From IMG/VR virus record IMGVR_UViG_3300015203_000001, positions 1 through 64,000 of that record: a stretch of 64,000 bases of DNA; one strand, written 5' to 3'. Positions 8,031 through 61,200 of the stretch are shown one piece after another. Origin of the DNA: a virus. How positions within the stretch are numbered: position 1 is the stretch's first letter; each line of letters begins with the position of its first letter. The notes beneath the pieces were generated by a model that did no database searches, had not been told where the DNA came from, and saw only the letters and a list, made by a program, of their open reading frames with translations. The position numbers and the translations under genes were made by a program.

Positions 8031-8343
8031 CTTTCTCTACTCTTTTTAATATGTCCTTATATATTAAGTCTCTCTCCATGTGTTTATTAGGAGTAATCCA
8101 ACGTAATTCAAGTTGAGTATCATTTTGCCTAATAGCAGTTCTAAGAGTACGTGAAACTACTTTAAAAGTTCCAAATTCACAAACTTGAATTTGAGGTAAT
8201 TCCGGTTTAGACATCTGAAGTCTGATGAAGTGAAAGGGAGACTTACATATTCTCTCAAATGTATCATAGTCTAAATTGGGATGTTCATGTTTTATCTTCT
8301 CCCAATACTCCTGTATTACTCTTTCTATTGTTAGTAATGCCAT
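7996..8343 (-). CDS. hypothetical protein (115 aa)
   Basis: ORF track; co-directional. Confidence 0.55.
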   Translation of the reverse strand: MALLTIERVIQEYWEKIKHEHPNLDYDTFERICKSPFHFIRLQMSKPELPQIQVCEFGTFKVVSRTLRTAIRQNDTQLELRWITPNKHMERDLIYKDILKRVEKDEQTSMEIVDE

Positions 8344-11279: not shown

Positions 11280-11425
11280 TTTGAACTAATTTCAGTTTGA
11301 ACTGAAGTTTCTACAGCCTGACTGGGAGAAGTTCAGATACAAATGTACTATTGTTGAAGGAGAATTTCAAATTTATTTGAAGTTTGTTCAGAAATATTTG
11401 AACTTTATTTAGTTCTAACTGAACT
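11280..11425. repeat. cluster of TGAACT-family sites (operator-like) flanking the leftward promoter
   Basis: TTTGAACT at 11280, 11296 and 11397; cTGAACT at 11419; inverted AGTTCA at 11330 and GTTCA at 11386. 16-bp palindrome TTCAGTT-tg-AACTGAA at 11291-11306; tAGTTctAACTG at 11410-11421. Confidence 0.6.
11340..11371 (-). promoter_or_regulatory. Bacteroidota-type sigma-A promoter facing left (TTTG-N20-TAcaTTTG)
   Basis: The minus strand reads TTTG (11371-11368), 20 nt, then TACATTTG (11347-11340). This is an exact fit to the published -33 TTTG / -7 TAnnTTTG consensus and spacing. Confidence 0.6.
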
Positions 11426-11444
11426 TAGTTAAAATTTTTTTGAA

Positions 11445-11543
11445 ATTTTTAGGAGAGATGTAGATACTTGGAGTAATGAAAATAAAATTTTTAGGGAAAG
11501 TATGTATTTAAATTATTATAAAATTATTTTTAGGAAGAATGTA
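11445..11543 (+). repeat. three iteron-like direct repeats ATTTTTAGG-N4-6-ATGTA
   Basis: 11445-11462 ATTTTTAGGAGAGATGTA; 11487-11506 ATTTTTAGGGAAAGTATGTA; 11526-11543 ATTTTTAGGAAGAATGTA. Start-to-start spacing is 42 and 39 nt. Confidence 0.6.
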
Positions 11544-11567
11544 AGAAGATAAACTACCCCACTTACA

Positions 11568-11587
11568 ACCTCCACCAATAATTGATA
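11568..11587 (+). promoter_or_regulatory. conserved box A: ACCTCCACCAAT-aat-TGATA
   Basis: One of five same-strand copies; intergenic; followed by a hairpin-rich, ORF-poor stretch. Confidence 0.5.
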
Positions 11588-11715
11588 ACTAATAGTCCCC
11601 CGGCATTAGTTAGTGAGATAGAATGCTTTGGGCTGGATATATAATAGAGTATGACTACGTACACTGCAAAGTGTTAGAATAGCTCTCAACTTCTGAACAC
11701 AGAAGGCTCTATTAT
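11586..11715 (+). repeat. nested inverted repeats (structured element 1)
   Basis: Hairpin TAACTAAT/ATTAGTTA (11586-11612). 9-bp arms ATAATAGAG (11641-11649) / CTCTATTAT (11707-11715) enclose CTTCTG-aaca-CAGAAG (11690-11705). Confidence 0.55.
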
Positions 11716-11724
11716 TATCCACCC

Positions 11725-11744
11725 ACCTCCACCAATTTCTGATA
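11725..11744 (+). promoter_or_regulatory. conserved box B: ACCTCCACCAAT-ttc-TGATA
   Basis: Identical 12-nt core; preceded by the DnaA-box-like TTATCCACC (11715-11723). Confidence 0.5.
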
Positions 11745-11769
11745 GTTGAGTTAATAATAGTAGGATTAA

Positions 11770-11907
11770 ATGACAAAATGGAGAGGATTTATAACACATC
11801 TAATCGAAATAGATGAGTTAGGCTTTGATAGTTACTGGTATGTAAAGCAAAAAGGGTCATGTAGTGTTTGTGATAATGTATATCTTAGGACAACATTGAT
11901 AGCTTAG
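11770..11907 (+). CDS. possible 45-aa micro-ORF (MTKWRGFITHLIEIDELGFDSYWYVKQKGSCSVCDNVYLRTTLIA)
   Basis: Hand translation; AGGA 4 nt upstream. The start codon lies in the outer stem arm and the ORF body in the inner stem arm, so this may be a non-coding structure instead. Confidence 0.25.
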   Translation: MTKWRGFITHLIEIDELGFDSYWYVKQKGSCSVCDNVYLRTTLIA

Positions 11908-11945
11908 ACCACATACCAGTAACTATTCTACAGTCATTTTGTCAT
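11770..11945 (+). repeat. nested long-range inverted repeats (structured element 2)
   Basis: Outer 11-bp perfect arms ATGACAAAATG (11770-11780) / CATTTTGTCAT (11935-11945). Inner 16-bp perfect arms ATAGTTACTGGTATGT (11828-11843) / ACATACCAGTAACTAT (11911-11926). Confidence 0.7.
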
Positions 11946-12009
11946 GACATCCAATCAGGTCACAAAACTATAGCCTCAATATTCTTCATAAGTCAGTATT
12001 AACCAATCA

Positions 12010-12029
12010 ACCTCCACCAATTCTTGATA
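12010..12029 (+). promoter_or_regulatory. conserved box C: ACCTCCACCAAT-tct-TGATA
   Basis: Ends 38 nt before the ATG at 12068. Confidence 0.55.
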
Positions 12030-12052
12030 GTATTATAATTATAAATCACTTA

Positions 12053-12063
12053 TTAAACTAAAT
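12053..12063 (+). promoter_or_regulatory. leader motif TTAAACTAAAT (copy 1 of 7)
   Basis: Ends 4 nt before the ATG at 12068. Confidence 0.5.
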
Positions 12064-12067
12064 CGTT

Positions 12068-12352
12068 ATGACCATCAATCAAATTAAATCAGAGCTTTCA
12101 TTAAAGAATGACACTCAAATTGTAGCTCTCAACATGGTTCAGCAGTTAGATGCTGATAAGCTGCCTACAGAGTGGGTTAGCCACTGGGATAATGCTAAGA
12201 GGTTGAGAATAGTAATGCATCAAGACCTATTTGCATTAGTATTAGCTAATCCTGCAATGTCCACATTAGCTTACAAGACAGAGGTTGTAAGTGACAAGAA
12301 CTACACTCGCTATGTGGTTATCAATCCTAAGGGATTAGTTGGCTCGATCTAA
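12068..12352 (+). CDS. hypothetical early protein (94 aa)
   Basis: ORF track; first gene of the rightward block; preceded by box C and the leader motif, followed by a terminator; visibly more G+C than its neighbours. Confidence 0.7.
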   Translation: MTINQIKSELSLKNDTQIVALNMVQQLDADKLPTEWVSHWDNAKRLRIVMHQDLFALVLANPAMSTLAYKTEVVSDKNYTRYVVINPKGLVGSI

Positions 12353-12362
12353 TCAACAACAG

Positions 12363-12403
12363 ACAATACTACTCAATTATGGGTAGTATTGTTTTATTTA
12401 TTT
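12363..12403 (+). terminator. intrinsic terminator
   Basis: 10-bp stem ACAATACTAC/GTAGTATTGT (12363-12372 / 12383-12392) followed by TTTATTTATTT. Confidence 0.65.
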
Positions 12404-12420
12404 ATACACACATCCTAACA

Positions 12421-12440
12421 ACCTCCACCAATCTTTGATA
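12421..12440 (+). promoter_or_regulatory. conserved box D: ACCTCCACCAAT-ctt-TGATA
   Basis: Ends 31 nt before the ATG at 12472. Confidence 0.55.
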
Positions 12441-12457
12441 TTATCCCATTCACTCTT

Positions 12458-12468
12458 ATAAACTAAAT
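12458..12468 (+). promoter_or_regulatory. leader motif aTAAACTAAAT (copy 2)
   Basis: Ends 3 nt before the ATG at 12472. Confidence 0.5.
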
Positions 12469-12471
12469 CAC

Positions 12472-12534
12472 ATGACAGTCCTTATTATCAATTCAAATGA
12501 TTCTGTAACAACAATAGAAGATTATTTAGATTGA
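12472..12534 (+). CDS. possible 20-codon leader ORF (MTVLIINSNDSVTTIEDYLD)
   Basis: Hand translation. It has the same box-plus-leader context as the real gene at 12068, but is very short. Confidence 0.25.
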   Translation: MTVLIINSNDSVTTIEDYLD

Positions 12535-12564
12535 GATTATCAATAAATTCTTATCTTTGAACTT

Positions 12565-12643
12565 AATAACTATTATTCATAGACAATGCTAAGTTATTGC
12601 ACCCACTGTATAAAGAGTGGAAATCTATATAGTAATAGTTATT
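12565..12643 (+). repeat. inverted repeat (structured element 3)
   Basis: 11-bp arms AATAACTATTA (12565-12575) / TAATAGTTATT (12633-12643) enclosing CCACT-gtataaag-AGTGG. A TTTGAACT copy sits at 12556-12563. Confidence 0.55.
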
Positions 12644-12650
12644 TATAAAT

Positions 12651-12685
12651 CTCCGTATATGTATTGTCATTTGACATATGTGGAG
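12651..12685 (+). other. 12-bp hairpin that needs two G-U pairs (RNA-level structure)
   Basis: CTCCGTATATGT (12651-12662) pairs with ACATATGTGGAG (12674-12685). Positions 5 and 6 pair only as G-U / U-G. Confidence 0.5.
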
Positions 12686-12801
12686 TATAATTGAATGACC
12701 ATTAGCATAAGATGAACAACAATGCATTAAATACATCATTATATCATATTTATAGTTCTCCCTGATATATGGTATGACAACATGTGATAGAGATGTATAA
12801 C

Positions 12802-12840
12802 AAACACTGGATGAAGTATAGTAACCAGTGTTTTATTTTG
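12802..12840 (+). terminator. intrinsic terminator
   Basis: 9-bp stem AAACACTGG/CCAGTGTTT (12802-12810 / 12825-12833) running into TTTTATTTT. Confidence 0.6.
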
Positions 12841-12882
12841 ATTATAATAACTAAAGATAATAAGGTATTAGTCTGTATACCC

Positions 12883-12910
12883 TGAACTTGTAGGAACAGT
12901 TGCAACTGTT
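12883..12910. promoter_or_regulatory. TGAACT plus perfect 16-bp palindrome AACAGTTgcAACTGTT
   Basis: TGAACT at 12883-12888; palindrome at 12895-12910. It shares the core CAGTTnnAACTG with 11293-11304. Confidence 0.55.
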
Positions 12911-13009
12911 AATCTAAACCAAACAGATATAGATATAAATAGAAGATCAGTTATAGACCTACATTGGAGTACTACACTTTAACTGATTTTATTTTTATTC
13001 AATCACCAA

Positions 13010-13020
13010 TTAAACTAAAT
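13010..13020 (+). promoter_or_regulatory. leader motif TTAAACTAAAT (copy 3)
   Basis: Ends 5 nt before the ATG at 13026; preceded by CACCAAT, which is the 3' half of the conserved box. Confidence 0.5.
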
Positions 13021-13025
13021 CAATT

Positions 13026-13187
13026 ATGTCAGTTTCAAGTTGTATTACAGATTGCATTAAATGTGGAGAACAGTTTAATTATAGTCAATATAATAACTGT
13101 CCTAATTGTGGGGCATCATTACCAAAAGAAGATACAGACGATGAAGAATATGATATATTAGACGTAGACTATAATGAAGAAGATTAA
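13026..13187 (+). CDS. 53-aa zinc-ribbon protein with acidic tail
   Basis: Hand translation: MSVSSCITDCIKCGEQFNYSQYNNCPNCGASLPKEDTDDEEYDILDVDYNEED. CxxxCxxC...CxxC pattern, leader motif upstream and hairpin downstream. Preferred over the TTG-start track ORF 12964-13161 in another frame. Confidence 0.5.
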   Translation: MSVSSCITDCIKCGEQFNYSQYNNCPNCGASLPKEDTDDEEYDILDVDYNEED

Positions 13188-13191
13188 CATT

Positions 13192-13225
13192 GATAAGCTG
13201 TATCTCATTAGACATACAGCTTATC
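13192..13225 (+). terminator. 12-bp hairpin after the zinc-ribbon ORF (weak T tract)
   Basis: GATAAGCTGTAT (13192-13203) / ATACAGCTTATC (13214-13225). Confidence 0.4.
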
Positions 13226-13332
13226 TCTTACAATTTGTAAACAACTACTAGATATATGCGTTACTAAATTAAACAGATGGATTTAATAAGAGGAATATAT
13301 CTATATACCTCACAATTAAAATTAATACCTAA

Positions 13333-13349
13333 TTAAACTAAAACTAAAT
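13333..13349 (+). promoter_or_regulatory. leader motif, tandem form TTAAACTAAAACTAAAT (copy 4)
   Basis: Ends 4 nt before the ATG at 13354. Confidence 0.5.
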
Positions 13350-13353
13350 ACAA

Positions 13354-13563
13354 ATGTCAACACATAAACAACACAAGCAATTAGTAAATAGAATATTAGA
13401 AGAACAGAAATCTAAGCCTAAGCCATTAGTTGTAATTGAAACTAATAAGGCAATAGTTATACCTATTATAGAGAGTAAACCTGTAATATATCAACCAGTA
13501 AATTACTCAAACTATTTAGATAAGTTATACTATTTAAATAAACAAAATAGAAAATCTACATGA
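13354..13563 (+). CDS. hypothetical early protein (69 aa), basic
   Basis: ORF track; leader motif upstream. Confidence 0.6.
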   Translation: MSTHKQHKQLVNRILEEQKSKPKPLVVIETNKAIVIPIIESKPVIYQPVNYSNYLDKLYYLNKQNRKST

Positions 13564-13639
13564 TGAGGATGGTTGGGATGAAATGATGAGTAATAAGTTT
13601 GGAGGTATGTATGATTAAGTATCCAGAGTAATTAATACA

Positions 13640-13750
13640 AATAATAAAGAGAGAGTTTAGTTTCAAAGATAAAAAAAAATACTTGATAGCCTAGGTTAAT
13701 ATCAAGAGATGGAGGTATAACGTAATAATCCTCCAACTCTCTTTATTATT
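13640..13750 (+). repeat. nested inverted repeats (structured element 4) containing an A9 tract
   Basis: Arms AATAATAAAGAGAGAGTT (13640-13657) / AACTCTCTTTATTATT (13735-13750): 14 contiguous bp, a 2-nt bulge, then 2 bp. Inner hairpins CTTGATA/TATCAAG (13682-13706) and GGAGG/CCTCC (13711-13734). A9 at 13671-13679. Confidence 0.55.
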
Positions 13751-13840
13751 TCAAAGTATATAAAATAATCAGGTTCTCCAATATCTTCCATTAGTAGGAA
13801 GGCTTTTGCTGAAACTCAAGCCCAGCAAGGCTTTCAGAGG

Positions 13841-13849
13841 TTATCCACA
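13841..13849 (+). promoter_or_regulatory. perfect DnaA-box consensus TTATCCACA
   Basis: Exact 9-mer in an intergenic, locally G+C-richer segment. A single copy could be chance. Confidence 0.35.
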
Positions 13850-13920
13850 ACACAAATTTTGTACGAGAATCCAGAAAAATACATAATATTTACATTTTTA
13901 AATACTCTTTTACAAATTTC

Positions 13921-13947
13921 TTGTGTAAATATCTTATATTTACACAA
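13921..13947. promoter_or_regulatory. 27-bp palindromic operator-like site
   Basis: TTGTGTAAATAT-ctt-ATATTTACACAA, perfect 12-bp arms. Extra half-site ATATTTACA at 13886-13894. TTGCATGCAA palindrome spans the ATG at 13960. Confidence 0.6.
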
Positions 13948-13959
13948 ATATTGTATTGC

Positions 13960-14427
13960 ATGCAATTAAACAAGCTGATTAACCCTTTTATCAATAATTT
14001 AAGAGTTCCATACATAGAAATTATTAAGAAGATACCAGATACTTATGGAGGTGAACCTGAAGCATATAAAGTAGAAGCAGAGAGTTATTTTAGAGTGTAT
14101 TCATCTAAACATATAAGAGTATTTCTATATAAAGAGTTAAATATGTGGGCTAGAGATATGTTTACAGCAATACAGTATTTTACTAACAGTGATTATAAGT
14201 ATGTAATTATCTCTTACGAGAAGATAGTTGAATTATATGGAGAGGATTATGGAAAGAGAAGATATGATGATACTATAAGAGAACTAATAAGGTTTAGTAT
14301 AATAGATATAAAGGATAGAGCAGAAAATGAATATTGGTATAATCCAGCATATTTTAGCCCTACAACTAGAATAACACTATTTGAAGAGTGTCTTTATAAA
14401 GTTAAAACAGTATATAAACAATATTAA
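13960..14427 (+). CDS. hypothetical protein (155 aa), possible winged-helix DNA-binding or initiator-like protein
   Basis: Track ORF 13921-14427 starts at TTG inside the palindrome; the first in-frame ATG is 13960 (MQLNKLINPF...). The segment ISYEKIVELYGEDYGKRRYDDTIRELIRFSIID looks wHTH-like; weak. Confidence 0.6.
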   Translation: MQLNKLINPFINNLRVPYIEIIKKIPDTYGGEPEAYKVEAESYFRVYSSKHIRVFLYKELNMWARDMFTAIQYFTNSDYKYVIISYEKIVELYGEDYGKRRYDDTIRELIRFSIIDIKDRAENEYWYNPAYFSPTTRITLFEECLYKVKTVYKQY

Positions 14428-14436
14428 TCAAATTAT

Positions 14437-14610
14437 ATGAATAATGCAATAGAAATACTTAAAAGATTAATAGAAATGAAGTATGAGCTATTTGATGAAT
14501 ATATGATTAATAATAAAGCTGGAATAGAAGCACCACAAAATATTAAATTAGCTAAGCTAATAAAAGATGCAGAGGATGAAATAGAACTTAATAGAATTAG
14601 ATCAAACTGA
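14437..14610 (+). CDS. hypothetical protein (57 aa, helical)
   Basis: Hand translation MNNAIEILKRLIEMKYELFDEYMINNKAGIEAPQNIKLAKLIKDAEDEIELNRIRSN; starts 9 nt after the previous stop; below the track cutoff. Confidence 0.45.
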   Translation: MNNAIEILKRLIEMKYELFDEYMINNKAGIEAPQNIKLAKLIKDAEDEIELNRIRSN

Positions 14611-14666
14611 ATAAACTTAAATGTATATGTTAATAATAACCCATCTATTATTAATTAATGAATAAC

Positions 14667-14692
14667 AATGTCCTAACTGGACATTTTTTATT
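14667..14692 (+). terminator. intrinsic terminator
   Basis: AATGTCC-taact-GGACATT followed by a T run (14684-14689). Confidence 0.6.
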
Positions 14693-14708
14693 TAAACTCC
14701 ACCTATCC

Positions 14709-14728
14709 ACCTCCACCAATCTTTGATA
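14709..14728 (+). promoter_or_regulatory. conserved box E: ACCTCCACCAAT-ctt-TGATA
   Basis: Directly after a terminator; followed by a 77-nt leader and a strong terminator hairpin before the gene at 14867. Confidence 0.5.
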
Positions 14729-14805
14729 ATACTCTCATTATATGTAACGTTAGTATTAGATTAATAGCCATATAATTGAAGTATTTGGATATGATTTATA
14801 CGGGT

Positions 14806-14847
14806 AAACTGGTTATTATAGAGATGTAATAACCAGTTTTATTTTAT
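14806..14847 (+). terminator. intrinsic terminator / possible attenuator in the leader of 14867
   Basis: 13-bp perfect stem AAACTGGTTATTA (14806-14818) / TAATAACCAGTTT (14827-14839), followed by TATTTTAT. Confidence 0.6.
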
Positions 14848-14852
14848 ACTAA

Positions 14853-14862
14853 TTAAACTAAA
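14853..14862 (+). promoter_or_regulatory. leader motif TTAAACTAAA (copy 5)
   Basis: Ends 4 nt before the ATG at 14867. Confidence 0.5.
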
Positions 14863-14866
14863 CAAC

Positions 14867-15310
14867 ATGAAAACATATAAGTATCCAATTACTAAATTAA
14901 AACCAAATCAAATATTTGTATTTGGGTCAAATACACAAGGTAAACATAGAAGTGGTGCAGCTAGATTTGCTATAGAAGATGCTGGAGCTATATATGGTCA
15001 AGCAGCAGGATTACAGGGTAATAGTTTTGCTATTATTACTAAGGATTTAACTAAGAAGATACATCCATCAGTAAGTAAAGACAAGATAATATGGCAAATA
15101 CAAACATTATATTTATTTGCTCAAACTGTATATGGGAAAACAAAAGAATGGTTAGTAGCATATAATGGAGATGGAGTATATTTAAGTGGATTTACACCTA
15201 AAGAGATGGCTACAATGTTTTCATTAGCAGCCACACATATAGTGACTAGAGAGAATAAAGGAATACCAGATAATATTATATTTGAAGAAGAATTTGCTAA
15301 ATTATTATAA
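14867..15310 (+). CDS. SLOG/LOG-DprA-like Rossmann protein (resembles the 'A1S_2505 family phage non-structural protein')
   Basis: 147 aa. N-terminal IFVFGSNTQGKHRSGAARFAIEDAGAIYGQAAGLQGNSFAIITK matches the FGSN..G.H..GAA...GA..G...G..G.S.AI.TK pattern I recall for that family. Needs an HMM check. Confidence 0.4.
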   Translation: MKTYKYPITKLKPNQIFVFGSNTQGKHRSGAARFAIEDAGAIYGQAAGLQGNSFAIITKDLTKKIHPSVSKDKIIWQIQTLYLFAQTVYGKTKEWLVAYNGDGVYLSGFTPKEMATMFSLAATHIVTRENKGIPDNIIFEEEFAKLL

Positions 15311-15319
15311 ACAATTAAA

Positions 15320-15329
15320 TTAAACTAAA
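15320..15329 (+). promoter_or_regulatory. leader motif TTAAACTAAA (copy 6)
   Basis: Abuts the ATG at 15330. Confidence 0.5.
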
Positions 15330-15756: not shown

Positions 15757-15766
15757 TTAAACTAAA
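15757..15766 (+). promoter_or_regulatory. leader motif TTAAACTAAA (copy 7)
   Basis: 16 nt before the ATG at 15783; preceded by the 10-bp hairpin GTTTAAACCC/GGGTTTAAAC. Confidence 0.45.
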
Positions 15767-16557: not shown

Positions 16558-16595
16558 AGCCTCTATATGTAAAAGTGTAGGGGCTTTTTATTTTA
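16558..16595 (+). terminator. intrinsic terminator
   Basis: AGCCTCTA (16558-16565) / TAGGGGCT (16578-16585), 8 bp including one U-G pair, followed by TTTTTATTTTATT. Confidence 0.55.
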
Positions 16596-17866: not shown

Positions 17867-17899
17867 AATTTCACATAAAAATTAATTGTAGAATAGAAG

Positions 17900-17940
17900 A
17901 TATAAGTTGAGAGATAAAACTCTTAACTTATATTTTTTAT
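17900..17940 (+). terminator. intrinsic terminator
   Basis: 14-bp stem ATATAAGTTGAGAG (17900-17913) / CTCTTAACTTATAT (17920-17933) with one G-U pair, followed by TTTTTTA. Confidence 0.65.
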
Positions 17941-27354: not shown

Positions 27355-27386
27355 TTTGGTAGTAAGAAAAGTTGTATGTATATTTG
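27355..27386 (+). promoter_or_regulatory. Bacteroidota-type sigma-A promoter (TTTG-N20-TAtaTTTG)
   Basis: TTTG at 27355-27358, 20 nt, then TATATTTG at 27379-27386; 51 nt before the ATG at 27438. Confidence 0.6.
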
Positions 27387-27437: not shown

Positions 27438-27728
27438 ATGAGTGCAGAAGCAAAACAAAAGATCACAGTTGACATCAAAGATGTTAAAGCTAAATTGAAA
27501 GAGGGTATAAGCAGGGAAGCAATTTTTAAACATTATGGGCTTAATAAGTCTGAAGGGAAAAAATTGTTTATGGATTCCCGTTTAAAGGGTTTAAAGACCT
27601 TTAAAGAAAGAGGTAAGAAAGAAGTGCCATTTGAGATAGTGGACAGTACTGCTGATGGTGAAGTTAAAGATAGTGAAGCAACTAAAGTTGCAGAACCAGT
27701 AGCAGCAGGGGTATCAGATAATTGGTAA
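27438..27728 (+). CDS. hypothetical protein (96 aa), acidic tail ending in Trp
   Basis: ORF track; ends ...EPVAAGVSDNW. Confidence 0.6.
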   Translation: MSAEAKQKITVDIKDVKAKLKEGISREAIFKHYGLNKSEGKKLFMDSRLKGLKTFKERGKKEVPFEIVDSTADGEVKDSEATKVAEPVAAGVSDNW

Positions 27729-49264: not shown

Positions 49265-52200
49265 TTATTTACATTTTTCATTTCTAATATCTAATTCTTT
49301 ATTTGGAAATTCTTCAGTAGGAGATAGTGTACCTAATACATCTCCACCTGTATCATCAGGGTCAAATGGTGGTAAGTCATAATTACTACCTTCATCATAG
49401 TAATTATTAAATTCATCTATATCACTCTCCTTCTTAGTCTCCTTATCTATAAATTCAAATATACTATCTATAGCTTGTACTGCTGCACTATCAGCTTTTA
49501 AATCTAACCCTAAATCTCTTAATATATTAAATATGAACTCTTTAAATACTTGCAATCTAGTTTTACCTGATTGCTTAAATTGATCTTTATTTAAATACTC
49601 CTGAAATGCTTTATTAGATATACTTCTAGCTAAGAACTCATATATATTAGATACACTGTAGTGTAATAATTCCTCTGGAGTTAGTCCTTGATCTTTAGCC
49701 TTTTTATCAGCTATAGATTTTAATATATTAGGGTCTGACTTACTCCTAACATCATTATATAATCTAACTATATCACTAACATAACTAGGAGAATTATTTC
49801 TTACATCTACACTTCCATCTGTATTCTGTGTGATATACTGCTGTATTCTACTAGCTGTAAGCATATGTACTACTTCTTCTAGTATTACACTTGCTAATTG
49901 TTCATTCTTTAGTACACCTATAGTATCTGGATTTATTCTAATATCATTATGTCCTATATTATAGGAACCATAGAATGCACTCTCTCCTGCCCATGTTACA
50001 TTATTATAACTTATATCAATATCTTTACTCACATAAGGTAATAATTCTTTAGCTAATGCTGAATAGCTCCCTAATTGATTATCAACAATTTTCTGTAAAG
50101 AATTAATAGCTTTCCCACTTTGAACATCAAAAATGTCAGCTTTTAGACTTTCTGGCAGGGGAATATTCTGTTTTAAAGCCTTCGTAGGTGAGATATTCCG
50201 GGGCTTAGTCTTATTCAAAATGGATAAGCCAACGTCAGAGCCTTTAGAATATTCATCCATACCAAAAGTTCCTAAGATTGGGATTTCAGAGTATTTTTCA
50301 CCATCAAATTTATATAATCTGATCTTTTTCTTAGTACTAACTGATCTATCATATACACTTACAAATGGATTAATACCTGCTAGTATATCTATATATGTTC
50401 CATCTTTCTGTTTCTTAAATCTCTTATTAAAATCATCTAATTTGAACTTATTCTTATTAGACACCATAGATTCAGGAGTATGCTGAATATATTGAGTAGT
50501 AAATGGAGATACTAAATGTTTTTCTCCATCTTCTTTATTTGCTTTAATACCTAACATATCTAATCCTTTCATAGTAGGAAGTCTATCATTCATTACTCTC
50601 ATTGTATATGCATATCCTATTTCAGTTAAATATCCTACTGAAGTATATTTAGTAAATTGTATAGCTTCCTGTTTAGCATTACCTAAGAATGAGTATGATA
50701 TAAGAGCTTGTGCTAGTGTATTTAAAGTATATTCTTTATTACCTATCTTTGGTAATTTAATGTCTATACTATTACCCTCCTTATCTTTCTTCTTAACTTC
50801 CAACATGGAAACTAGAGAATTATATAAGTAAGATTCATCATAACTCTCTCCTATAGCATTATTATATTTAATTAATGAGGGTTCACCAATTTTACTAGGT
50901 ACGTATTCTAATTTATTTAATAGTGGATTAGTCCTAATATATTTAATAACATTTCCTATTTTAATTTTTTCTTGTTTTTCTTCTTCAGTTAACTCTTTAG
51001 TTTCTTCATTTTTACTTCCTTTTATATCATATAACTGCTGCATATAGTATGCTAATGAAGTATTTTCATCTGTATCTATATACAACTCCTTCCTTAAACT
51101 GTTAGCAGTCTCATTATTTCCAAACATACCTGCCATTTCAAATGTAGCTAAGTACTTCTTTAATTCAGCAAATATATCTTGCTTTAATTCTATCTGTCTA
51201 GTAATATTATCACTATCATCTTGCTCTATTAGAGGAAGTATTTCATCAAATATAGCATTCATACTTACACTGTCATAAGGAAGATACTTATTCCATAGAT
51301 TATATGCTGTATTTACTGCTACTACATTAAATGCTCCTACTAATGTAGTAGGTTTAATCATCTGATCTCCTACTTCATAATATCCATCTTCTCTTAATTT
51401 CTGCCTTCCACTTTCTGATTGAGGTTTATCTTCATAATCTCCTATTAAACTATCTACATTTTCTATTTTAGCATTACCCTTACCCATCTCATTAAGAGCA
51501 TCTCTCTTAGCTATCACATTAAAATAAGACTTATCTAACCCCTTACTCTCTACATTTAATCCAGTTTGGATAGCTCTAATAGCTAATCCATACTTTTCCA
51601 TATCTAAAAATCTTAATAAAACAGCAGCCTGTAATTCTCCGTCTGCTCCACTATCTTTAATAGCTTTAAGCATATTAACTGAAGTCATTCTAGGAGATAC
51701 CCTATTATGATTATAATCTTCTTCTAATGCACCTACAAAATACTTAGTTATTAACTCATTTTTAATTCTTTCTTTAGCAGCCTTACCATTCTCAAAATTA
51801 GATAGTCTACCTACATTGGAAGTAGCATTAGATAATTTATTTACATACTCTCTAATTATAGGTTGAGACATAAATCTCATAGCTAAACTACCACCATCAG
51901 TTCCTTTAAATAGTCCAGTTAGATTAAATATTTTCTGCACATCCAAAGTATATTTATTAAGATTTACTCTATTCATAATCTGTAACTTCTCATGATCTAC
52001 TCCAGTTTGAGCCACTTCATCTAATACATTAGATATATCTCTATCTCCTTCTTTACCATTTACATCCATAGTTCTAGAACTCCCCAACTCAAAGTGACTT
52101 TCTATATCTCCAAATTTCCATATCTTATTATGTGCTTTACCTTCACTATCTACCCATATTAATTTTAAAGGTTTACCTTGTGCTTTAGCTTGTTGAGCTT

Positions 52201-55200
52201 GTGCATGAAAAGTTACATCCATACTATATGCCCCTTTGCCTAGACCTCCTGTTGCACCTCCTATTAACTTCTGTTTCTGATATTCTCCACTTAATGCTGT
52301 CCAATAAGTATCATTTTTAGGTGTAGCTTTCTCTATTATATCAGCTTGATCTTCTGTAAACTTAGTATTAAGTACAGAATTTATTTTAGCCTGTAATTTT
52401 TTATTTGGATTTGAATATACAGATTGATATATTTCTATTATCTTATTTTGTGTTAATTGATCTTCTAATTTAGCTTGAGCATCTATAAGAGAATCTTGTT
52501 GTTCTATTTCATTATCTGTATAATCTTCTATCTCTTCAGATTTAAGTACACTATCTATTAGCTTATCAGCACTTTCAAGTCTTAGTCTATTATTCTTAAA
52601 GTCAGCATCATGCTTAGATAGTATCCTAGATTTATGATTTGAACTTAACTTCTCTATCTTACCATCTTCATTCTGATAATGATAATAAGCATAAGTATTC
52701 TCTTTATCCACATCAAAGTCTAATCCCTTAATCTTAGTGTAGATACTAGGAAGTATCATTAAATCTCCTTGTTGTGCAGGTAAAAATCCTGCAATCTCTA
52801 TACTACTTCCACTACCTAATCCAGTTGTAGGTATTCTAAATCCTATTAATTGTAGTAACTCTTTATCAAACATTTCAGGTCTAATATGATAACTCTTATC
52901 TTCAGATTGAGTTATATATTTACCACTTCCATCTTCATTCTTCTCAAATAGATTTATTAATTTACCATTATTATCTTTAAATTTAGAAGTTACAAATACT
53001 TGTGATTTACTTATTTTACCTACCTTACTTAGCTTATTTTTACTAACATATTCTTTTAGTTCTGCTTCGGTATTAAATTGCTTAGAAGTACCATCTTTTA
53101 AATTAACCCACCATTCATCTTCTTTTTCTCCTTTAGGATCAGGTACTGCTCCTGCAAAAACTATTTTACTACTATTTTCATCATATATGGCTTGTAATTC
53201 AGAGCCATTCCAAGCAGAAGTATATATAATCTTAGATTGATCTACTCCTTTTAAATCAGCTTGTAACTTAAATCCTTCAGGACTTCCAGCTACAAATGAA
53301 TTACCATGAAACTTTAACTTAGCTATCCTATTAGTAACTATTGAGTTCATTAAAGCCTCAAACTTATTACTATTAATACTACTCCATATAGGTAATACAA
53401 ATTCATTAATAATATTACCATCAGGGTCTTTCCTAAAATCTAATCCTTTAGTAGTCTGTACTGGTAATCCTCTATTATTAGCCTCTTTTAATAGTAGCTT
53501 CTGTAACTTCTTAATTGCCCTATCTTTATCTACAGGTACTCCATGTTTATCTAATCCTAATTCATTATATAATTGTTCTTTCTTACTCTGTATTAATTTA
53601 ATATGTAAATCATTATATTCTTTATGTAACCACTCTCCAGTTCTCTTTTCTCCTTGATAATTAAAACCATCAAAGGACATCACATCATTACCAAACAGTA
53701 GTTTCATTAATTGAGTCCCATAACTAACAAAATCAAATCCCTGTTTACTAGATTTAAATGGCACTTCCTGTTGTATTCTAAAATTCTTTCTGTCTAATAT
53801 TAGTCCACTAGCTCCTAAATTCTCTTCTTTAGTAGTAGTACTATCTGGTATTACCAAATTATCCATTGAACCTTCTATAAATCTACCATCTCTATCCCAT
53901 ATAGTTCTAGCATTCTTTAATGCTCCTACTTTATTAGCTGATTGATATGAAGCTCTTACTCCCATCCCCTTATATTTATCTGAACTCTCTAATGCTTCCA
54001 TCTTCAACCTTAACTTATCAATCTCCATTCCAGCAGTTAATTGAGGAATGAGTGGAAATGCAGAAGATTTAATATAAATATCTCTCATTACATCTTGTGC
54101 TTCATCAAATTGCTGTCCAGTATATACAGGCTTCATAGGTTGCATTATCTTACCTATTAACTTCTGTTGTCTATCTGTTAGTTGTTCTTTAGTGGTTTTA
54201 GAAGAAAATAAATCCCTAGCCTCCTGTATTTCAGCAGCAGTTATATCTATGATAATTTCAGGCATCTTGCCTAATTTCTCCATTAGATTTAAATGCTCTG
54301 TCCATGTAGTATATTCTTGTGCATCTGAAGCCTCTATATCAAAGAATCCACTACTGTTAGGATATTTTTCTTTAAGTCTATCTATATTCTCTCCTTTCTG
54401 TAACTGCTCATACTCTCCATCACTCATCTCTTTACCATCATTTATTCTAGTAGAGAACTTCATAAATGCTTTATCTGCTATACTACTTCTATCTTTAATA
54501 AATAACTGTATATATTTCTCATTCTCACTTTCAGCAGGTGAAGTTCCCGGAGCTATCTGATTAGCTAATCTCTTACCTATATTAATGAAGGTATCCTTAG
54601 CCATCTGTATATAATCTTCCTTCTCATCACTTTTAAACTTCAAAGCAGGGTCACCTGCAAATAGCATAAATGAATTAGCTAATGAAATCATTTGATTTGT
54701 AACTAAATCTAATGCAGCCATATTAGCCTTTTCATCTAAAGAACCACTGAATTTCTTAGGTTCATCTATATAATCAGTACTTATAAAATTAATACTACTA
54801 ATAGTTCCATCTGCATTAGTATCTACTATTTTATTATTCTTCCAATTAGTTAATTTCTCCTCTTTAAGACTATTAATATTATCTCTAATAGCCTGATTAA
54901 TCCTACTCATTAAATCTTCATTCTTCTCTATTTCCTCTATTGTGATAGTATCAGGCTCATTCTTAATAGCATCTTTCAGATACACTCCATTCCCATAATC
55001 TAATGTATTAAGACTAGGCATCATTAAAAATAATGAAGCTCCTTCATCATAACCTTTAATATTAGTAGCTTTAACTATAGAATGAAACATGCTCATTCTT
55101 TCTAGTTCAGGTTTGACCACTTGAGTATACACCAATTTTATAACCTCATCTGATAACTTCTGCCCATTACCTAAATCTTTATTCTTAAAATTTAATACTG

Positions 55201-58200
55201 GTACAGTTAGTGGGATAGCTATATGTTTATCAGACATAGTTGGCCCTAGCATAGTAGCCCATCTCATATCTATACTAGTACCGGGATAATCTCTATGTAC
55301 TACTCCTTTATCATCTTTAAATACTACTTCCCCCTTAGTCATATCAAAGAACATATTATTAGAAGCAGTCTCATAATCTAAATCTCCTAACTTATCTATT
55401 CCTTTATCAGATTTAAATTTATTACCTAATATATCTAGTGCTGTAAATCCTATATGACTAACATCAAACTTACTCCTAAAATCTTCATCATCCATTAGAT
55501 TCAACCACATAGAATTTCTAGAGAATGAAATTTTCTTCAACTGCCCTCTTAGTGGAGAAATATCACTCTTTAACTCTAAAGCTCTAGTAGTGACAAATTT
55601 TCTTGCAGTAATAGCAAAATATGACTTACCATTATCTCTACCTCCATAGGGGATATGTGTAGTATCATATTTAGTCTGTAAACTAGCTAATGTCTTTATT
55701 ATAGTCTGGTTAATAGGAATATCACTACTTTTCTTAAATGAGTGATCTTCAGGTTCATCAATTAATGACTTTAATTTAGATGATAGTATTCCAAATAATC
55801 CACTAGTCTCATTAAATAATTTCTCCCAACTATGCTTCTTATAATTATGATAAAACTTACCAGCCCTAAGATCATCCATAGTTTTATCACTAACTATAAT
55901 GCCAAACTTAGATAACCACTCTTGCATTTGGTGATTAGTAGCTATAATCTTATTATAATTCTTAGAATCTCTAAATTTAGTACTAAAATCATCTACTAAT
56001 ATTTGAGCTTTCTTCTTATTGAGTACAAGATTATTCTCTGCATCTGTCTCTTTAAATACTAAGTCACTAATAGTAAATCTACTCACCCAATCTTTCATTA
56101 TAGCATCTGCTACTCCTCCCTTACCAGTATCCCATAATGATGCCTTAAATATAGCTGGCTTATTTCCGTAAGCAGGTGTATACTCTATCATAGTAAACTT
56201 CATCCTAAGTGGAGACATAGACATTAATGAAGTAAACTGATATTTTATTTGTTGATTAGCTCCACTTAATTTAGTCACTAATCTATCTTTCCAAGACTGT
56301 TCATTTAACTTATTCTTAATACCTTCTAATAAATCATCAAATCTACAAGGTATATCTGCTAGTGTGGGCTGTAATACTTGAATTATTTTACTAGAATCTT
56401 CATAAGTATCTAATCCAAACACTCCTTTCTTACCTGTAGGTATAGCTTTTAAGAATATTCTGACAGCACTACTAACTCCATTTTCAGGATTTCTAGTTAG
56501 AGATTCATCAGCCCACTGATTATCATGTTCATCATCTGTGCTGTCATTTATATCCCTATCATTATCATCACTACTCTCCTCTTTCTGTCTAACTAAATCT
56601 ACTCCATTTACTTTCTCTATTTCAGCTATAGCTTTGTCTATTAATGGTTGTATATTATTCTTAACTCTATTAATCCTATCTATCTTCTTGATTATAGTAG
56701 CTACTAAATTAGGAATATTACCTGCTGTTTTTTGTTCAGGATGTTCATTTAACCAATTATTCCAAAAGATTACTTCTCCCTTATATACCTCTATAGCAGG
56801 CTCTATAGCTTCTTTAAATATTCTCTTAGTATTCTCCTCTACTTTAGACTTTAAGATTACTCCTCCATCATCTTCAAATGCCTGAAACATTTGGTTAGTA
56901 AAATAACTTACTATTTCACTCTCTTCTATCTCGTTTAAATCTCCTATTCTATTTAACTCACTAGTCACTTGAACCCTCTCTCCTGTATTTAACTCTCTAG
57001 GTGATTGAAGATCATCTATACTCTCAATATTAAAATCTAATCCCAATTCCTTCAACTTATTCATCCTCTCTCTAAGTAGAACTTCCACATCTGTTTCAGG
57101 TTGTGGTTTAATCTCATCTAATTCTTTTTTAACCTCATCTACTTTCTCTTTAATCTCCTCTGGTTTAGTTAATACTTGTGCCTCTTGTTCTTCCTTCTGG
57201 CTACTCAACTTATAGCTAACCATATTATCACTACTCACATACTTAGGCTTCTCTTTAGTACCTATATTTACACTTCTTATATTAGTAGTGTAATTCTTTA
57301 ATATATAATCTCTATAACTATCAGCAGCATTACTAACTTTTCCCTGTTCATCTATATATACTATAGGTCTATCTTCTTGAGAACCTCTAATATCATAGTT
57401 CATCTTATGGCTCCCTAATATAGATACTTTACCATTTGGAGTAGTAATTTGAGATTTTAGTATATTATTTAATATAGATGTAACTGTTTTAAGTTTATCT
57501 CTTGTACTTGTATCATTTCTAGTCACTCCGGGTTTAGGCTCTCCAATACTACTACTAAGATCATAATTAAAAGTAGTATTATGTTGACCAAATAACACTC
57601 CACTACCTCCTTGAAGGAAAGTCACAAATCCGGTTATAGGTTGTACTCTATTATTACCATTAGCATCTACACCTCCTTTTCTTACTCTATTATCTGATTT
57701 AGTTTTAATCTGATTTAATGCAGCTTGCTTATTAGTAGCTTTTATTAATCTAATATCATTAATATATAAACTAATAAATCTCTGTATATCAGTTGCATCA
57801 GTAATATCTAATTTAGTAGCTTCTTGTATATCATCTTTAGTTTTCTTATATAACTTTTCAAAATCAGGATGAAATCTATTAATAAATATCTTCAGAGCTT
57901 GAAATATAGTAGTCTGTATCTCTTTAGTTATGGGTTGAGGACTAACTTCCATAGCTGTCCAAATCTTTCTGCCATCACTATGAGTACCAGTTCTATATAA
58001 AGCATATGATAATCCTATCTTATAAGGATTTTCTTTTATATCCCTTAATATTATATTTTCATTTGGATTTCCTAGTCTATCTTTAGTAAATGCATCTTTA
58101 TTATTAATGGTTAATTCACTAGTATCTTCAGCTATTGCAAATACAACTTCAGGATTAGCTTCAGAGAAGGGAATAAACTCATACATAGGTTTACCATCTG

Positions 58201-61200
58201 GTAGTTTACCTATTACTTTAGTCTTAAAAGGATCAAATGTAGTTGGTCTATTCTCTGTTATCTGGATAACCTCTTTTCCATTATTAGCTAATGCAGCTTT
58301 CCTAATAGCCATAGTATTATCTATAGCCATTTTCATCTCCTCTGGATTACCTTCATTAAATCTGTATTCATGATACCATCCAATATCATGCACAAATCCT
58401 AATCCTTTCTCTCCTTCTTTAGCTCCTTTATCATATACTATAATAGGTATCTTACTTATATATTCATCAGATTTAGGGTCTTTACCTACTTTCCATTCTC
58501 CCCATGTTACAGCCTTCCCCTTACTACCATCTGCATTATAGATAGGTATAATTATACTATCTACATTCTCTGGTATTCTAATATCTAATTGAGTACCTAC
58601 CCCATAATTATCATAATCTAGTATCTTAAATGGATTAATATTATCCCCCTCTTTTAATTCATCACTAGTATAATCATAAGAGATAGTAACAGTACCATCA
58701 TCATTAAGAGTAGTAAGCATATCTGCTGATCTAACAGATTTAGCTATCTTAGGATTAGGATTATTAGTTACTTTAGATTTATATTGTATCTTTCCACTTA
58801 ATACTGGTTGATTATCATTATCAAATTCTACAGGATTACCTGACTTCTCTATAGTATCCTTTTCACTTTGATTATTATTTACAGTAACTATTTCATCATC
58901 TTTCTGTTTACCATCTAATAATACTTTATTTAGAATCTGGTCAAATATAGCTTTAGGAGTGGCATCTAATAGTCTCTTTTTAATGTCATCAAAGTCTGCT
59001 GTTTTATTATTTAATTGCCACCCTAACTTTAATGTATCATATGCTGTCCTTACATATTTATCTCCATAATTACTAATTAATCCTTTCACTAAATCCTCAA
59101 AATTAGTGCCATGCCCTAATTCATTAGCCATATCTGATACTGCATTCTTTAATTGACTTTTTTCATCATCAGATAGAGTACTAGGATTTACTTCTATAGG
59201 TGATTGCAGATTAACTAATCCTCTAGTTTCTATAGTTTCATAGTTCTGTTTATTCTGGTTTTCAGCTCCCTTTAATAAATCAAAAGCTAATCTAGGAGCA
59301 TTTAATTTATTAGCTACTTCATATCCTACATTTCCTAGATTCTGTAGCCATGATATATAGTTTGGATTTGTACTTGCATCTATTTTAGGTACTTTATAAA
59401 CCTCTGCTGCATAATCTAGTAGTTGTTGTGTAGCAGCAGTATCTACTCTATGTTGTTCATTTGGTAAGTCAATTCTTTTAAGCTCACTATTTTGTGGTAC
59501 AGTAGAAGTAGATTTAGTCATAGGTAATACAACTTTAGCTACTAATTGTTGTACTGTATTAAATCCCTTTAATACTTCAGGATTATTCTTAGGTTGCTCT
59601 ATTTCCTCTGTCTGTTGTTGTTCAGGATTAACTATCTCATTAGTCTCTTGTACAGCTTGATTCTGCTGTTGAGCTTCATTCTTAATTCCATCAGCTATAT
59701 CTTTAGCTTTTAAAGCATCTTGCTTATCTTTAGCTATTTTCTTAGTAGTATTATCTAATACTGATTGTATTTGCTCATTAGTTCTAGCATTTTTAATTGC
59801 TTTCTCTTTCTGTGTTTGTATAAATTCAGGGTTATTCCATTGAGCTAATCTCTTTCTTTGTAAACTAATAGCATCATTAAGTACTGCTTTCTTAATAATA
59901 GCCTTTTGATATAAATAATTCTTACTATCTATATTACCTCTAATTATATCATTATCCTTAGCTCTTACTTCAGGATCAATAGTATCATCTGCTTCTATTT
60001 CATCAAGTCTATTCTTAATCTTAGTAGCCTTAGTCTGATTTTCGTCTATTAGTTTATTAATATTTTCTTTCTCATATGCATCTTCAGTTTGTGCATACTG
60101 CTCCTTTAACCTTTCAATCTGCACTTGATGTGCATACAACTCATATTCAGTATCATATTTCTCCTTACCTACTGGACTCAATAAAGTATATTGATCTAAT
60201 GTAGGTCTAATCTGATTAATATTAAGTTCATTCTTACCTTGTTCATCTAACCATGTATTTAGATTATAGTGTTGCCTAGTTATAAGAGGTACAAAATTTC
60301 TAGTATGTCTACTAGCCACTTTAGTGTAACTATCCTTTATTCTATTAGCATCATCTATATAAGTCTGAAATTCTCTCTTAACTTGCTCTACCTGTTCAGG
60401 TTTAACATCTCCGTATAAATCCTTAATATTATCATAATTCCCACTATTAACTTGGTCTAAAGTAGACTTTAGAAAATTAAGATGTGAGTTTGCTATATCT
60501 CCTTTATTAGCCTGACTATCTAACTGTAACCCATCTAGTAATTTAGAAGTAAAGAAATTCCTTCTAACTGCAAATGCATCATCTGTTTTTCCTTGTTTAT
60601 CTAACTCCTTTAATCCATTAATAGTACTATCATGCATAGTAACTACATTCTTCAAGTAATCATCATATCTCTCATTAAATGCAGCTATTTTATTCTTATT
60701 AACAAAATCTTGAGTAGCCTTCATAGCAGGTCCAATTAATAGTGAACCTAGAAATCCAGAAGCTACCATATTAGCAAATTCAGGGGATTGTATATCTTTA
60801 CTTACTCTCTCTAAAACATTAGTATCATCCTTCTCTAACCCTCCTAATACCATAGCATGATGTTCACCTTCATTCTGAAATATAGGTATTCCACCAGCTT
60901 CTATAGCCTCTATTCCACTACCCAATCCTTTAGTAGTAGCCCATCCAGCAGCTTTACCTAATTTACTTTCTCCAAATGCTCCTGCTAAATGTTCTAATCC
61001 TTTCTCTAATTCCCCTTCAGCTACTCCAGCTATTGGATTAAATACCATAGCTCTAAATGCTAATATATCTAGTGGTAGTTGTGCTAGTGTTAATCCAAAA
61101 TCTACTCTAGCCCCTGCACTAGCTAGGTGCTGTTTTTCTTCTTCTGTAAATGGAGTTCCATCTGGATGTTTAGAATTACTTAACTTCTCATAAGTATTTT

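Follow-up and report, generated by a model that had tools for sequence, protein, structure and literature searches.

Boxes at the start of the rightward block

The DNA analysed here, referred to as the window, comprises positions 1 to 64,000 of the IMG/VR virus record IMGVR_UViG_3300015203_000001, a phage sequence with a G+C content of 30.2%. Its rightward block of early genes opens with non-coding gaps and small open reading frames (ORFs) without assigned function, followed by genes for helicases, a family A DNA polymerase, a primase and UDG, while a giant virion protein with an RNA polymerase module is encoded on the opposite strand. The element studied is a short box repeated in the gaps at the start of this block. 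A sequence-only reading of the window had described it as five co-oriented, non-coding copies of a 20-nt sequence and had proposed them as promoters for the phage's own RNA polymerase. An exact scan with the pattern ACCTCCACCAATNNNTGATA (ACCTCCACCAAT-N3-TGATA) returned the same five copies with 0 mismatches, all on the + strand, all outside ORFs and all within 3.2 kb at the start of the block, as follows.

11568..11587, + strand: box A, exact match, first box of the rightward block, candidate start purine G11584
11725..11744, + strand: box B, exact match, candidate start G11741
12010..12029, + strand: box C, exact match, candidate start G12026, ending 38 nt 5' of the ATG at 12068
12421..12440, + strand: box D, exact match, candidate start G12437, ending 31 nt 5' of the ATG at 12472
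14709..14728, + strand: box E, exact match, candidate start G14725

The 12-nt core ACCTCCACCAAT, identical in 5/5 copies in this AT-rich DNA as had been described, was the commonest repeated 12-mer in the window. By chance, far fewer box matches were expected than the five observed (mean 0.24 and maximum 2 in shuffled sequences). With up to three mismatches allowed, no additional match was found on either strand, and the accompanying check of strand and coding context placed no box in coding DNA or on the other strand; the statement that the boxes are confined to the early region holds for the 64-kb window, which was the extent of the check. The distances of boxes C and D from their ATGs were likewise as first read, with the qualification that the ORF behind box D has only 20 codons. 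Successive boxes are spaced by 157, 285, 411 and 2288 nt, with genes and terminators between them.

Conservation of the box in related phages

GenBank phages contained no near-identical match to 11300-15000 at the DNA level. The exact-box scan of IMG/VR retrieved 28 contigs with one chance match each and none with several, and because no contig carried several exact boxes, IMG/VR appears to hold no close relative of this phage. More distant relatives were picked without reference to the box, using as anchor the Dda-like helicase at 17971-19302, which lies 6 kb 3' of the boxes, and taking 10 kb on each side of it from IMG/VR and metagenomes. The top repeated 12-mers 5' of the helicase in these relatives were themselves relatives of the box.

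ACCCCCACTAATTTG: helicase-upstream repeat, four copies in locus L031 and three in L032
AACCCCCACTAATT: helicase-upstream repeat, three copies in L067
CAACCCCCACTAATC: helicase-upstream repeat, two copies in L066
CCCCAACTAATTATTG: helicase-upstream repeat, two copies in L065
ACCCCAACTAAT: helicase-upstream sequence, one copy in L030

All lineages with 38-57% helicase identity carried related boxes upstream on the helicase strand. These boxes had the form (T)TCAAAACCC(C/T)CACT(A/T)AT or CTAnCAACCCC(C/A)ACTAAT, and they were on the same strand, intergenic and often located just after a terminator. Enrichment was measured with the pattern ACC[CT][CT][CA]AC[CT][AT]AT in 60 non-redundant loci (522 kb, window excluded) against Markov simulations. 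The helicase strand contained 28 copies, compared with 1.1 expected and a simulated maximum of 4, and the other strand contained 7, compared with 2.0 expected. Although ORFs of at least 70 aa make up 75% of this DNA, 24 of the 28 copies were outside them. In both the relatives and the window, the boxes either stand 19-60 nt before early ATGs or precede structured stretches poor in ORFs. Relatives keep the box in their syntenic early gaps. Blastn of the non-coding early stretches of the window against all related loci found no meaningful conservation; the box alone was kept.

An alignment of 38 distinct boxes from approximately 25 lineages showed a T-rich flank, often with a terminator, followed by c-t-T-C-A-A-A-A-C-C-C-Y-C-A-C-T-A-A-T-T. 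The positions A-CC..AC.A-T were invariant, G was absent from about -13 to +14, and the fifth base after AAT was a purine in 38/38 boxes. Regarding the 20-nt box as first described, its existence stood, but its conserved part reaches about 13 nt further upstream, and across relatives its TGATA end is reduced to one conserved feature, a purine (the G) at a constant distance.

A wider scan of IMG/VR with TCAARACCCYCACTWAT retrieved 86 stretches, in which single matches were near the chance level. However, 21 contigs, many of them 83-98 kb long, carried two to four copies each, and all 55 of these copies were co-oriented within their own contig. Box-bearing contigs, such as Ga0070751_1000069 and IMGVR_UViG_3300030105_002498, came from freshwater, soil and marine samples. 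From these multi-copy contigs, 36 distinct boxes were taken and scored at positions outside the search pattern. T was found at +11 in 29/36 boxes, a purine at +15 in all 36 (26 A and 10 G) and G at +16 in 29/36, while +17 was never G. Because positions outside the search pattern were conserved, the element is considered to span about 30 nt and to finish with a purine-purine step, which corresponds to the G-A of TGATA in the window. Such an end resembles a start site whose first transcribed bases are conserved.

The box was also present in cultured Flavobacterium psychrophilum phages (Fpv1, Fpv3 and FpV4-type). The complete Fpv1 genome (NC_031914, 88,994 bp) carried TCAAAACCCTCACTTAT four times on the early-gene strand of the early region (record positions 273, 14, 88531 and 86141) and nowhere else, with a weaker fifth copy, AAAACCCCCACTCAT, just upstream. 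When the ends of the record are joined, the Fpv1 layout parallels that of the window, in the order box, non-coding stretch, box, small ORF, terminator, box and ORF-poor stretch, and it can be divided into four units.

Fpv1 unit 1: box, about 150 nt, 27-codon ORF
Fpv1 unit 2: box 20 nt before gp80, then a terminator
Fpv1 unit 3: box, about 690 nt without annotated gene, gp79-gp76, terminator
Fpv1 unit 4: box, 2.3 kb without annotated gene (a tmRNA by Rfam inside), then the helicase

The taxonomy line of NC_031914 assigns Fpv1 to Fipvunavirus and not to Crassvirales, although both the terminase and the 4401-aa virion protein of this phage are clearly homologous to the crAss-type proteins of the window.

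Within genomes the core was uniform: 5/5 copies were ACCTCCACCAAT in the window, 4/4 were ACCCTCACTTAT in Fpv1, 4/4 were ACCCCCACTAAT in both L031 and L112, and the three copies in L067 were identical. Between genomes the core varied at positions 4, 5, 6, 9 and 10. The upstream flank tracked helicase kinship, being CTAnCAA-like in the nearest lineages (54-57% identity) and TTCAAAA in remoter ones (38-43%). Sameness within a genome and difference between genomes, together with unconserved surroundings, form the pattern expected of a site that is read by a co-evolving factor of the same genome. One exception to this uniformity was locus L098, in which two core variants, ACCCCCACTAAT and ACCCTCACTTAT, occurred in the same early region (3544 and 4255).

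Proposed transcription units around the boxes

The stretches that follow the boxes, and the hairpins that precede or close them, were as follows.

11588..11724, + strand: structured ORF-poor stretch between boxes A and B, candidate early non-coding RNA (fold z, ORF scan)
11745..12009, + strand: structured ORF-poor stretch between boxes B and C (fold z = -3.15 for 11740-12009)
12068..12352, + strand: early ORF of 94 aa directly 3' of box C, no family match
12361..12404, + strand: terminator-like hairpin (12361-12394, 15 pairs) with a T run in a T-rich tail, closing the unit of the 94-aa ORF, before box D
12441..13025, + strand: stretch after box D, with a 20-codon ORF (12472-12534) followed by about 490 nt that are hairpin-rich and ORF-poor (fold z = -2.0)
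14667..14695, + strand: terminator-like hairpin (14667-14685) with a T run, before box E
14729..14848, + strand: short structured stretch after box E with a terminator at its end (fold z = -3.09 for 14724-14848)
14806..14849, + strand: terminator-like hairpin (14806-14839) with a T run, about 110 nt after box E

The ORF-poor, hairpin-rich character ascribed to the stretches after boxes A, B and E withstood comparison with shuffled controls (z = -3.98, -3.15 and -3.09, respectively). For 11583-11724, the first of them, 0/200 shuffles folded as well. No long ORF appeared in the ORF-poor stretches under three genetic codes, including TAG or TGA readthrough. An Rfam scan of the early region and the whole window gave no match, and a tRNA search of the window found none. 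The terminator-like hairpins with T runs end 16-25 nt 5' of boxes D and E, leaving no space for a separate promoter before these two boxes. An exact-protein look-up of the 94-aa ORF returned no record.

Several further features accompany the boxes. A G-free upstream extension of box A begins at 11549, and a 137-nt structured stretch follows the box. Directly 5' of box A, between the divergent operons, lies an 86-nt C-free stretch (11468-11553), the second longest on the + strand of the window. The upstream flank of box B pairs inside a hairpin of the preceding structured stretch; CCACCC precedes this box, and in the closest relatives the upstream flank often holds CCAC-type repeats. Immediately 5' of box E, at 14695-14706, half of the core is repeated in degenerate form as AACTCCACCTAT, with 2 mismatches. 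The 20-codon ORF at 12472-12534 (MTVLIINSNDSVTTIEDYLD), whose upstream context is like that of other early ORFs, may be a real micro-protein or a leader peptide, and the 27-codon ORF of Fpv1 stands at the equivalent place.

A second motif, (A)TTAAACTAAA, occurred seven times, six times exactly and once as a near match, always on the + strand and 8-20 nt before early ATGs, including that of the 20-codon ORF.

12053-12062, 12458-12467, 13010-13019, 13333-13342, 14853-14862, 15320-15329 and 15757-15766, + strand: second motif (A)TTAAACTAAA, sequence match

The similar sequence TAAAACTAAA precedes some leftward genes (7307 and 49254), and TTAAAACTAAAG precedes g003 of phage phi14:2. This motif is probably the A-rich translation-initiation context of Bacteroidota, without Shine-Dalgarno pairing.

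In two relatives, a tmRNA (Rfam RF00023) was detected in the ORF-poor early region 3' of a box, at 4200-4614 of L070 (Fpv1; 58 bits) and at 6696-7143 of L031 (99 bits); ARAGORN made no call for either. L031 also has a tRNA with the anticodon CTA just 5' of a box (8112-8188), which would suppress TAG and suggests stop-codon recoding in this relative.

Full matches to the host-type promoter of Bacteroidota (TTTG-N17-22-TAnnTTTG) were found at the two intergenic positions named in the sequence-only reading.

11340..11371, - strand: host-type promoter by pattern match, facing the leftward operon
27355..27386, + strand: host-type promoter by pattern match, for the ORF at 27438

The window contained five such matches in total, not significantly above the 2.2 expected by chance. 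A scan for generic sigma-70 promoters yielded fewer sites than shuffled sequence did and carries no information for the host phylum.

The phage and its RNA polymerase

The large terminase of the phage was 50% identical to those of the F. psychrophilum Fpv/FpV4-group phages, and its remoter matches were crAss-like phages. The candidate reader of the boxes is encoded near the end of the window.

49265..61975, - strand: giant virion protein of 4236 aa with a crAss-type RNA polymerase module, candidate box reader (DFDVD, BLASTP, phrog_16227)

This ORF matched phrog_16227 and shared 35% identity with the giant virion protein of the Fpv phages. Its polymerase module would cover about residues 2000-4236, and the equivalent in Fpv1 is gp33. 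It contains a single DFDVD motif, at residue 3086 of 4236 aa. In BLASTP against gp66 of phi14:2 (E = 3e-13), the motif, as GLDFDVDK, was aligned with the catalytic GSDFDIDK, in support of the virion-type polymerase that had been assigned to this position from the sequence. In tblastn, the ORF matched phi14:2 g066, which is annotated as 'Catalytic RNA polymerase subunit'. Because of the DFDVD motif, the alignment with gp66 and the homology to the Fpv protein and g066, the enzyme encoded in the window is, as judged by sequence comparison, a crAss-type two-barrel virion polymerase. It was the only phage polymerase detected. Searches of the giant proteins against NCBIfam and PDB sequences gave no match, and the ten early proteins examined for a sigma factor or helix-turn-helix domain had none.

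Further along the rightward block, more terminators (16558-16585 and 17894-17939) precede the replication genes, which have no box. The block also encodes, at 31583-33877, a 764-aa protein of RIIA-like lysis-inhibitor families (phrog_612, E = 3e-60).

A proposed model of immediate-early transcription

The boxes are almost certainly a conserved cis-acting signal and quite probably promoters. The features looked for in promoters of a phage polymerase, namely a repeated co-oriented motif, an intergenic upstream position and a phage polymerase gene, were all found. Taken as a whole, we lean modestly toward interpreting the boxes as immediate-early promoters with the virion polymerase as their reader. 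The comparison between genomes supports that part of the original proposal which sees a transcription-start-like signal in the boxes, while the start of transcription at the purine and the identity of the reading enzyme, the virion polymerase, are steps that we infer.

Under this interpretation, the element would be about 30 bp long and consist of a G-free part of about 13 nt, the sequence A-CC-Y-C-M-AC-Y-AAT, 4 nt and a purine. Transcription would start at or beside this purine, the G of TGATA (11584, 11741, 12026, 12437 and 14725). Boxes A and B would give rise to two structured non-coding RNAs, box C to the mRNA of the 94-aa ORF, closed by its terminator, box D to a unit with a micro-ORF plus more structured RNA, and box E to an RNA of about 120 nt ending at the terminator, with readthrough into the replication genes. 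The early units would thus be short and insulated by terminators, several of them giving structured RNA rather than protein, and later operons would use host sigma-A-type promoters. The boxes would be read by a phage-specified enzyme already available at time zero, of which the likeliest is the two-barrel RNA polymerase packaged in the virion (49265-61975). This enzyme is favoured because only host and virion polymerases are available at time zero, because the box is unlike host motifs and varies with the lineage, and because no phage sigma factor or second polymerase was found. It is also favoured by analogy with phi14:2, in which early transcription is resistant to rifampicin and has been assigned to the injected gp66 (Drobysheva et al., bioRxiv 10.1101/2020.03.07.982082).

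Several observations weigh against this interpretation. In phi14:2, the sole crAss-like phage with mapped early 5' ends, no common motif was found upstream of them (bioRxiv 10.1101/2020.03.07.982082). In vitro, recombinant gp66 was active on single-stranded or denatured templates only (bioRxiv 10.1101/2020.03.07.982082), which leaves sequence-specific initiation on duplex DNA by enzymes of this class conjectural. The early regions of phi14:2 (first 25 kb) and crAss001 contained neither the box nor a comparable repeated 12-mer; if the box is a promoter of the virion polymerase, this absence makes it specific to one clade. Some variants (AATCTTTG, TAATTTGT) have a 3' part similar to the host -7 box or to SM5, and the window is 64 kb of the phage genome, not the whole genome. 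Finally, the replication genes of phi14:2 are also transcribed in a rifampicin-resistant manner (bioRxiv 10.1101/2020.03.07.982082), yet those of the window are boxless and lie behind terminators. The boxes are therefore not the whole story, and the replication genes of the window need readthrough or another signal.

Alternative explanations

The most serious alternative, which we nevertheless regard as unlikely, is that the boxes are promoters for the host RNA polymerase, read through an alternative host sigma factor or through a phage-delivered or early phage factor bound to AACCCYCAC, with sigma touching the A/T-rich part up to its terminal TTG. In boxes D and E, the 3' half (AATCTTTG) does match TAnnTTTG at 7/8 positions, several relatives (TAATTTGT) fit the SM5 motif TAnnTTGY of F. 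psychrophilum, and the middle and late promoters of crAss-like phages are read by the host polymerase (bioRxiv 10.1101/2020.03.07.982082). However, the invariant positions are CC..AC.AT rather than the host TA and TTTG, many variants have no TTG at all (e.g., TCCGAT, CCAGCA and TATAAG), there is no TTTG at -33, and the ten early proteins contain no sigma-like or helix-turn-helix domain. The uniformity within genomes combined with difference between them is also unusual for sigma-dependent promoters. Among the 120 matches listed from a scan of bacterial genomes, there were only single scattered ones in unrelated phyla and no multi-copy contig, although this is weak evidence. As to an ordinary host promoter, none of the five boxes was among the TAnnTTTG or bipartite matches (best partial match 7/8, upstream part G-free), in agreement with the first impression that the box does not look like the Bacteroidota promoter. 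Among the motifs defined experimentally in F. psychrophilum, which comprise sigma-A TAnnTTTG, SM5 TAnnTTGY, sigma-54 and an ECF-type CGT box (PMC9723704), the box of the window matched none of the other three either. Boxes that bind an early phage regulator or some other protein with affinity for DNA, acting in early shut-off or in anchoring the incoming DNA end, and that overlap or adjoin less conserved promoters, would account for a long, exactly repeated motif limited to the early control region, and the early genes of crAss001 include a transcriptional regulator. We give this explanation little credence: operators are usually symmetric and indifferent to orientation, whereas the box is non-palindromic and 55/55 copies are co-oriented per contig. 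Furthermore, the fixed purine and the conserved downstream bases resemble a start site, the terminators directly upstream leave no space for another promoter, and no DNA-binding domain was found among the early ORFs.

It is slightly less probable again that the box acts as RNA, being transcribed from upstream and functioning in processing, as a leader or in the manner of an anti-Shine-Dalgarno element. One readthrough transcript could cover boxes A, B and C, as no T-run terminator lies between them, and the upstream flank of box B pairs in the preceding RNA hairpin. Nevertheless, boxes D and E and many boxes of relatives directly follow a terminator, the box region is predicted to be unstructured, and the surroundings are unconserved, so that there is no larger RNA motif. 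The anti-Shine-Dalgarno idea, which the sequence-only reading had based on CCUCC, was not borne out: relatives have ACCCCCAC or ACCCTCAC in place of CCTCC, that is, CCCCC or CCCUC in the RNA. Promoters of an undetected T7-like single-subunit RNA polymerase, which we consider very improbable, would explain a close resemblance to phage T3, in which 14/14 annotated promoters carry ACCCTCACTAA or a near variant; several boxes of relatives (AAAACCCTCACTAAT) share AACCCTCACTAA with it at 12/12 bases. However, tblastn with the T7 RNA polymerase (gene 1) found no match in the complete Fpv1 genome and the window (best E = 0.13), and the giant proteins and 20 other proteins of the window gave no Pfam RNA_pol match. 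Moreover, the +1 G of T3 follows CACTAA by 2 nt, whereas the conserved purine follows it here by 6 nt and the equivalent position is T, and the window variant CCTCCACCAAT is further from T3. Three other candidates were rejected. Replication-origin iterons do not fit the irregular and wide spacing of the boxes, with genes and terminators between them, and a mobile repeat does not fit their unrelated flanks. A G-quadruplex on the template strand is not indicated by the G-free tracts at the boxes, which at 29-45 nt are ordinary for 30% G+C and rank 33rd to 194th by length.

Comparison with known systems

Read as immediate-early promoters, the boxes resemble those of the T3/T7 group (AATTAACCCTCACTAAAGGGAGA) in being a contiguous signal of about 23-30 bp on one strand, placed before transcription units and often after a terminator, and also in make-up: the upstream region is A/T-rich, the part conferring specificity is C-rich, the core is CAC-T, and the first transcribed bases, beginning with a purine, are conserved. 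The T3 core AACCCTCACTAA, checked on the 14 annotated promoters of NC_003298, was identical at 12/12 positions in the relatives L105, L107, L113 and L123 and in survey loci from IMG/VR (T3 itself is L145). The differences are that the core of the box lies 4 nt further from the putative start, that the boxes are found within a few kb of the early region rather than genome-wide as in T3 and T7, and that no T7-like polymerase was found; the window variant also differs at several core positions. We regard the resemblance to T3 as convergence or as coincidence in a G-free alphabet.

Phage N4 has few early promoters, located at the start of its early region and read by a giant polymerase that is injected from the virion and is independent of the host enzyme. 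These promoters are DNA hairpins with a stem of 5-7 bp and a loop of 3 nt, and the N4 enzyme is T7-like. The window is similar in having a handful of early promoter candidates at the start of the early region and a giant virion polymerase as their candidate reader, and differs in that its enzyme is of the two-barrel type. N4-type hairpins were rejected: both strands of the five boxes with their flanks folded at 0 to -2.6 kcal/mol, no better than shuffled sequences.

An experimentally studied system is phi14:2, whose virion enzyme transcribes early genes as well as abundant early non-coding RNAs, and in whose early block two long stretches between genes are expressed very highly from the earliest time point (bioRxiv 10.1101/2020.03.07.982082). 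The two phages share a homologous polymerase family, with DFDVD and DFDID aligned, a rightward early block with long ORF-free stretches (highly transcribed in phi14:2) and a similar A-rich TTAAA(A)CTAAA context before early start codons. However, the polymerase modules are only 22% identical, and no box was found in the first 25 kb of phi14:2. As in Thermus phage P23-45, whose single-polypeptide two-barrel polymerase is fused to a giant virion protein and whose promoter motifs, for virion and non-virion polymerases, come from mapped start sites (PMC10770324), a two-barrel polymerase lies within a giant virion protein; P23-45, however, belongs to an unrelated lineage with an unrelated host, and its starts were mapped experimentally, whereas those of the window are proposed from sequence. 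Regarding the Bacteroidota sigma-A promoter (-33 TTTG, -7 TAnnTTTG) and SM5, some boxes have an A/T-rich 3' part that ends in TTG or TTTG at about the distance of a -7 box from the putative start. In contrast, the conserved C-rich part of the boxes is missing from the host motifs, and the boxes have no -33 element, many of them also lacking TTG.

Significance

In the literature on early promoters of crAss-like phages and Crassvirales and on transcription in Flavobacterium phages, the motif was not found described, although coverage was incomplete and an earlier description elsewhere is possible; the word 'promoter' does not occur in a 2023 review of Crassvirales.

As proposed, the box would extend a known kind of element, the promoter dedicated to a phage polymerase, to the class of crAss-type virion enzymes. 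In its most far-reaching form, which we put forward as somewhat short of an even proposition, the box family would be the first sequence-defined promoter class of a crAss-type two-barrel virion RNA polymerase. Such promoters would be clade-specific, unstructured and about 30 nt long, with a C-rich non-template strand and a purine start, and in some lineages they would have converged on the T3 core despite an unrelated enzyme. As the DNA enters the cell, they would drive a burst of structured early non-coding RNAs, including, in relatives, a phage tmRNA.

To our knowledge, all crAss-like phages inject a giant RNA polymerase, and the boxes are the best candidate yet for its still undefined promoter. 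Kept across dozens of lineages and present in cultured phages, the element offers a sharply defined test template with which experiments are feasible. If the proposal is true, early transcription units and early non-coding RNAs could be annotated in many environmental genomes of Bacteroidota phages, and an orthogonal promoter-polymerase pair would become available for Bacteroidota. Given the T3-like core, it would also reveal convergence of promoter sequence between unrelated polymerase families.

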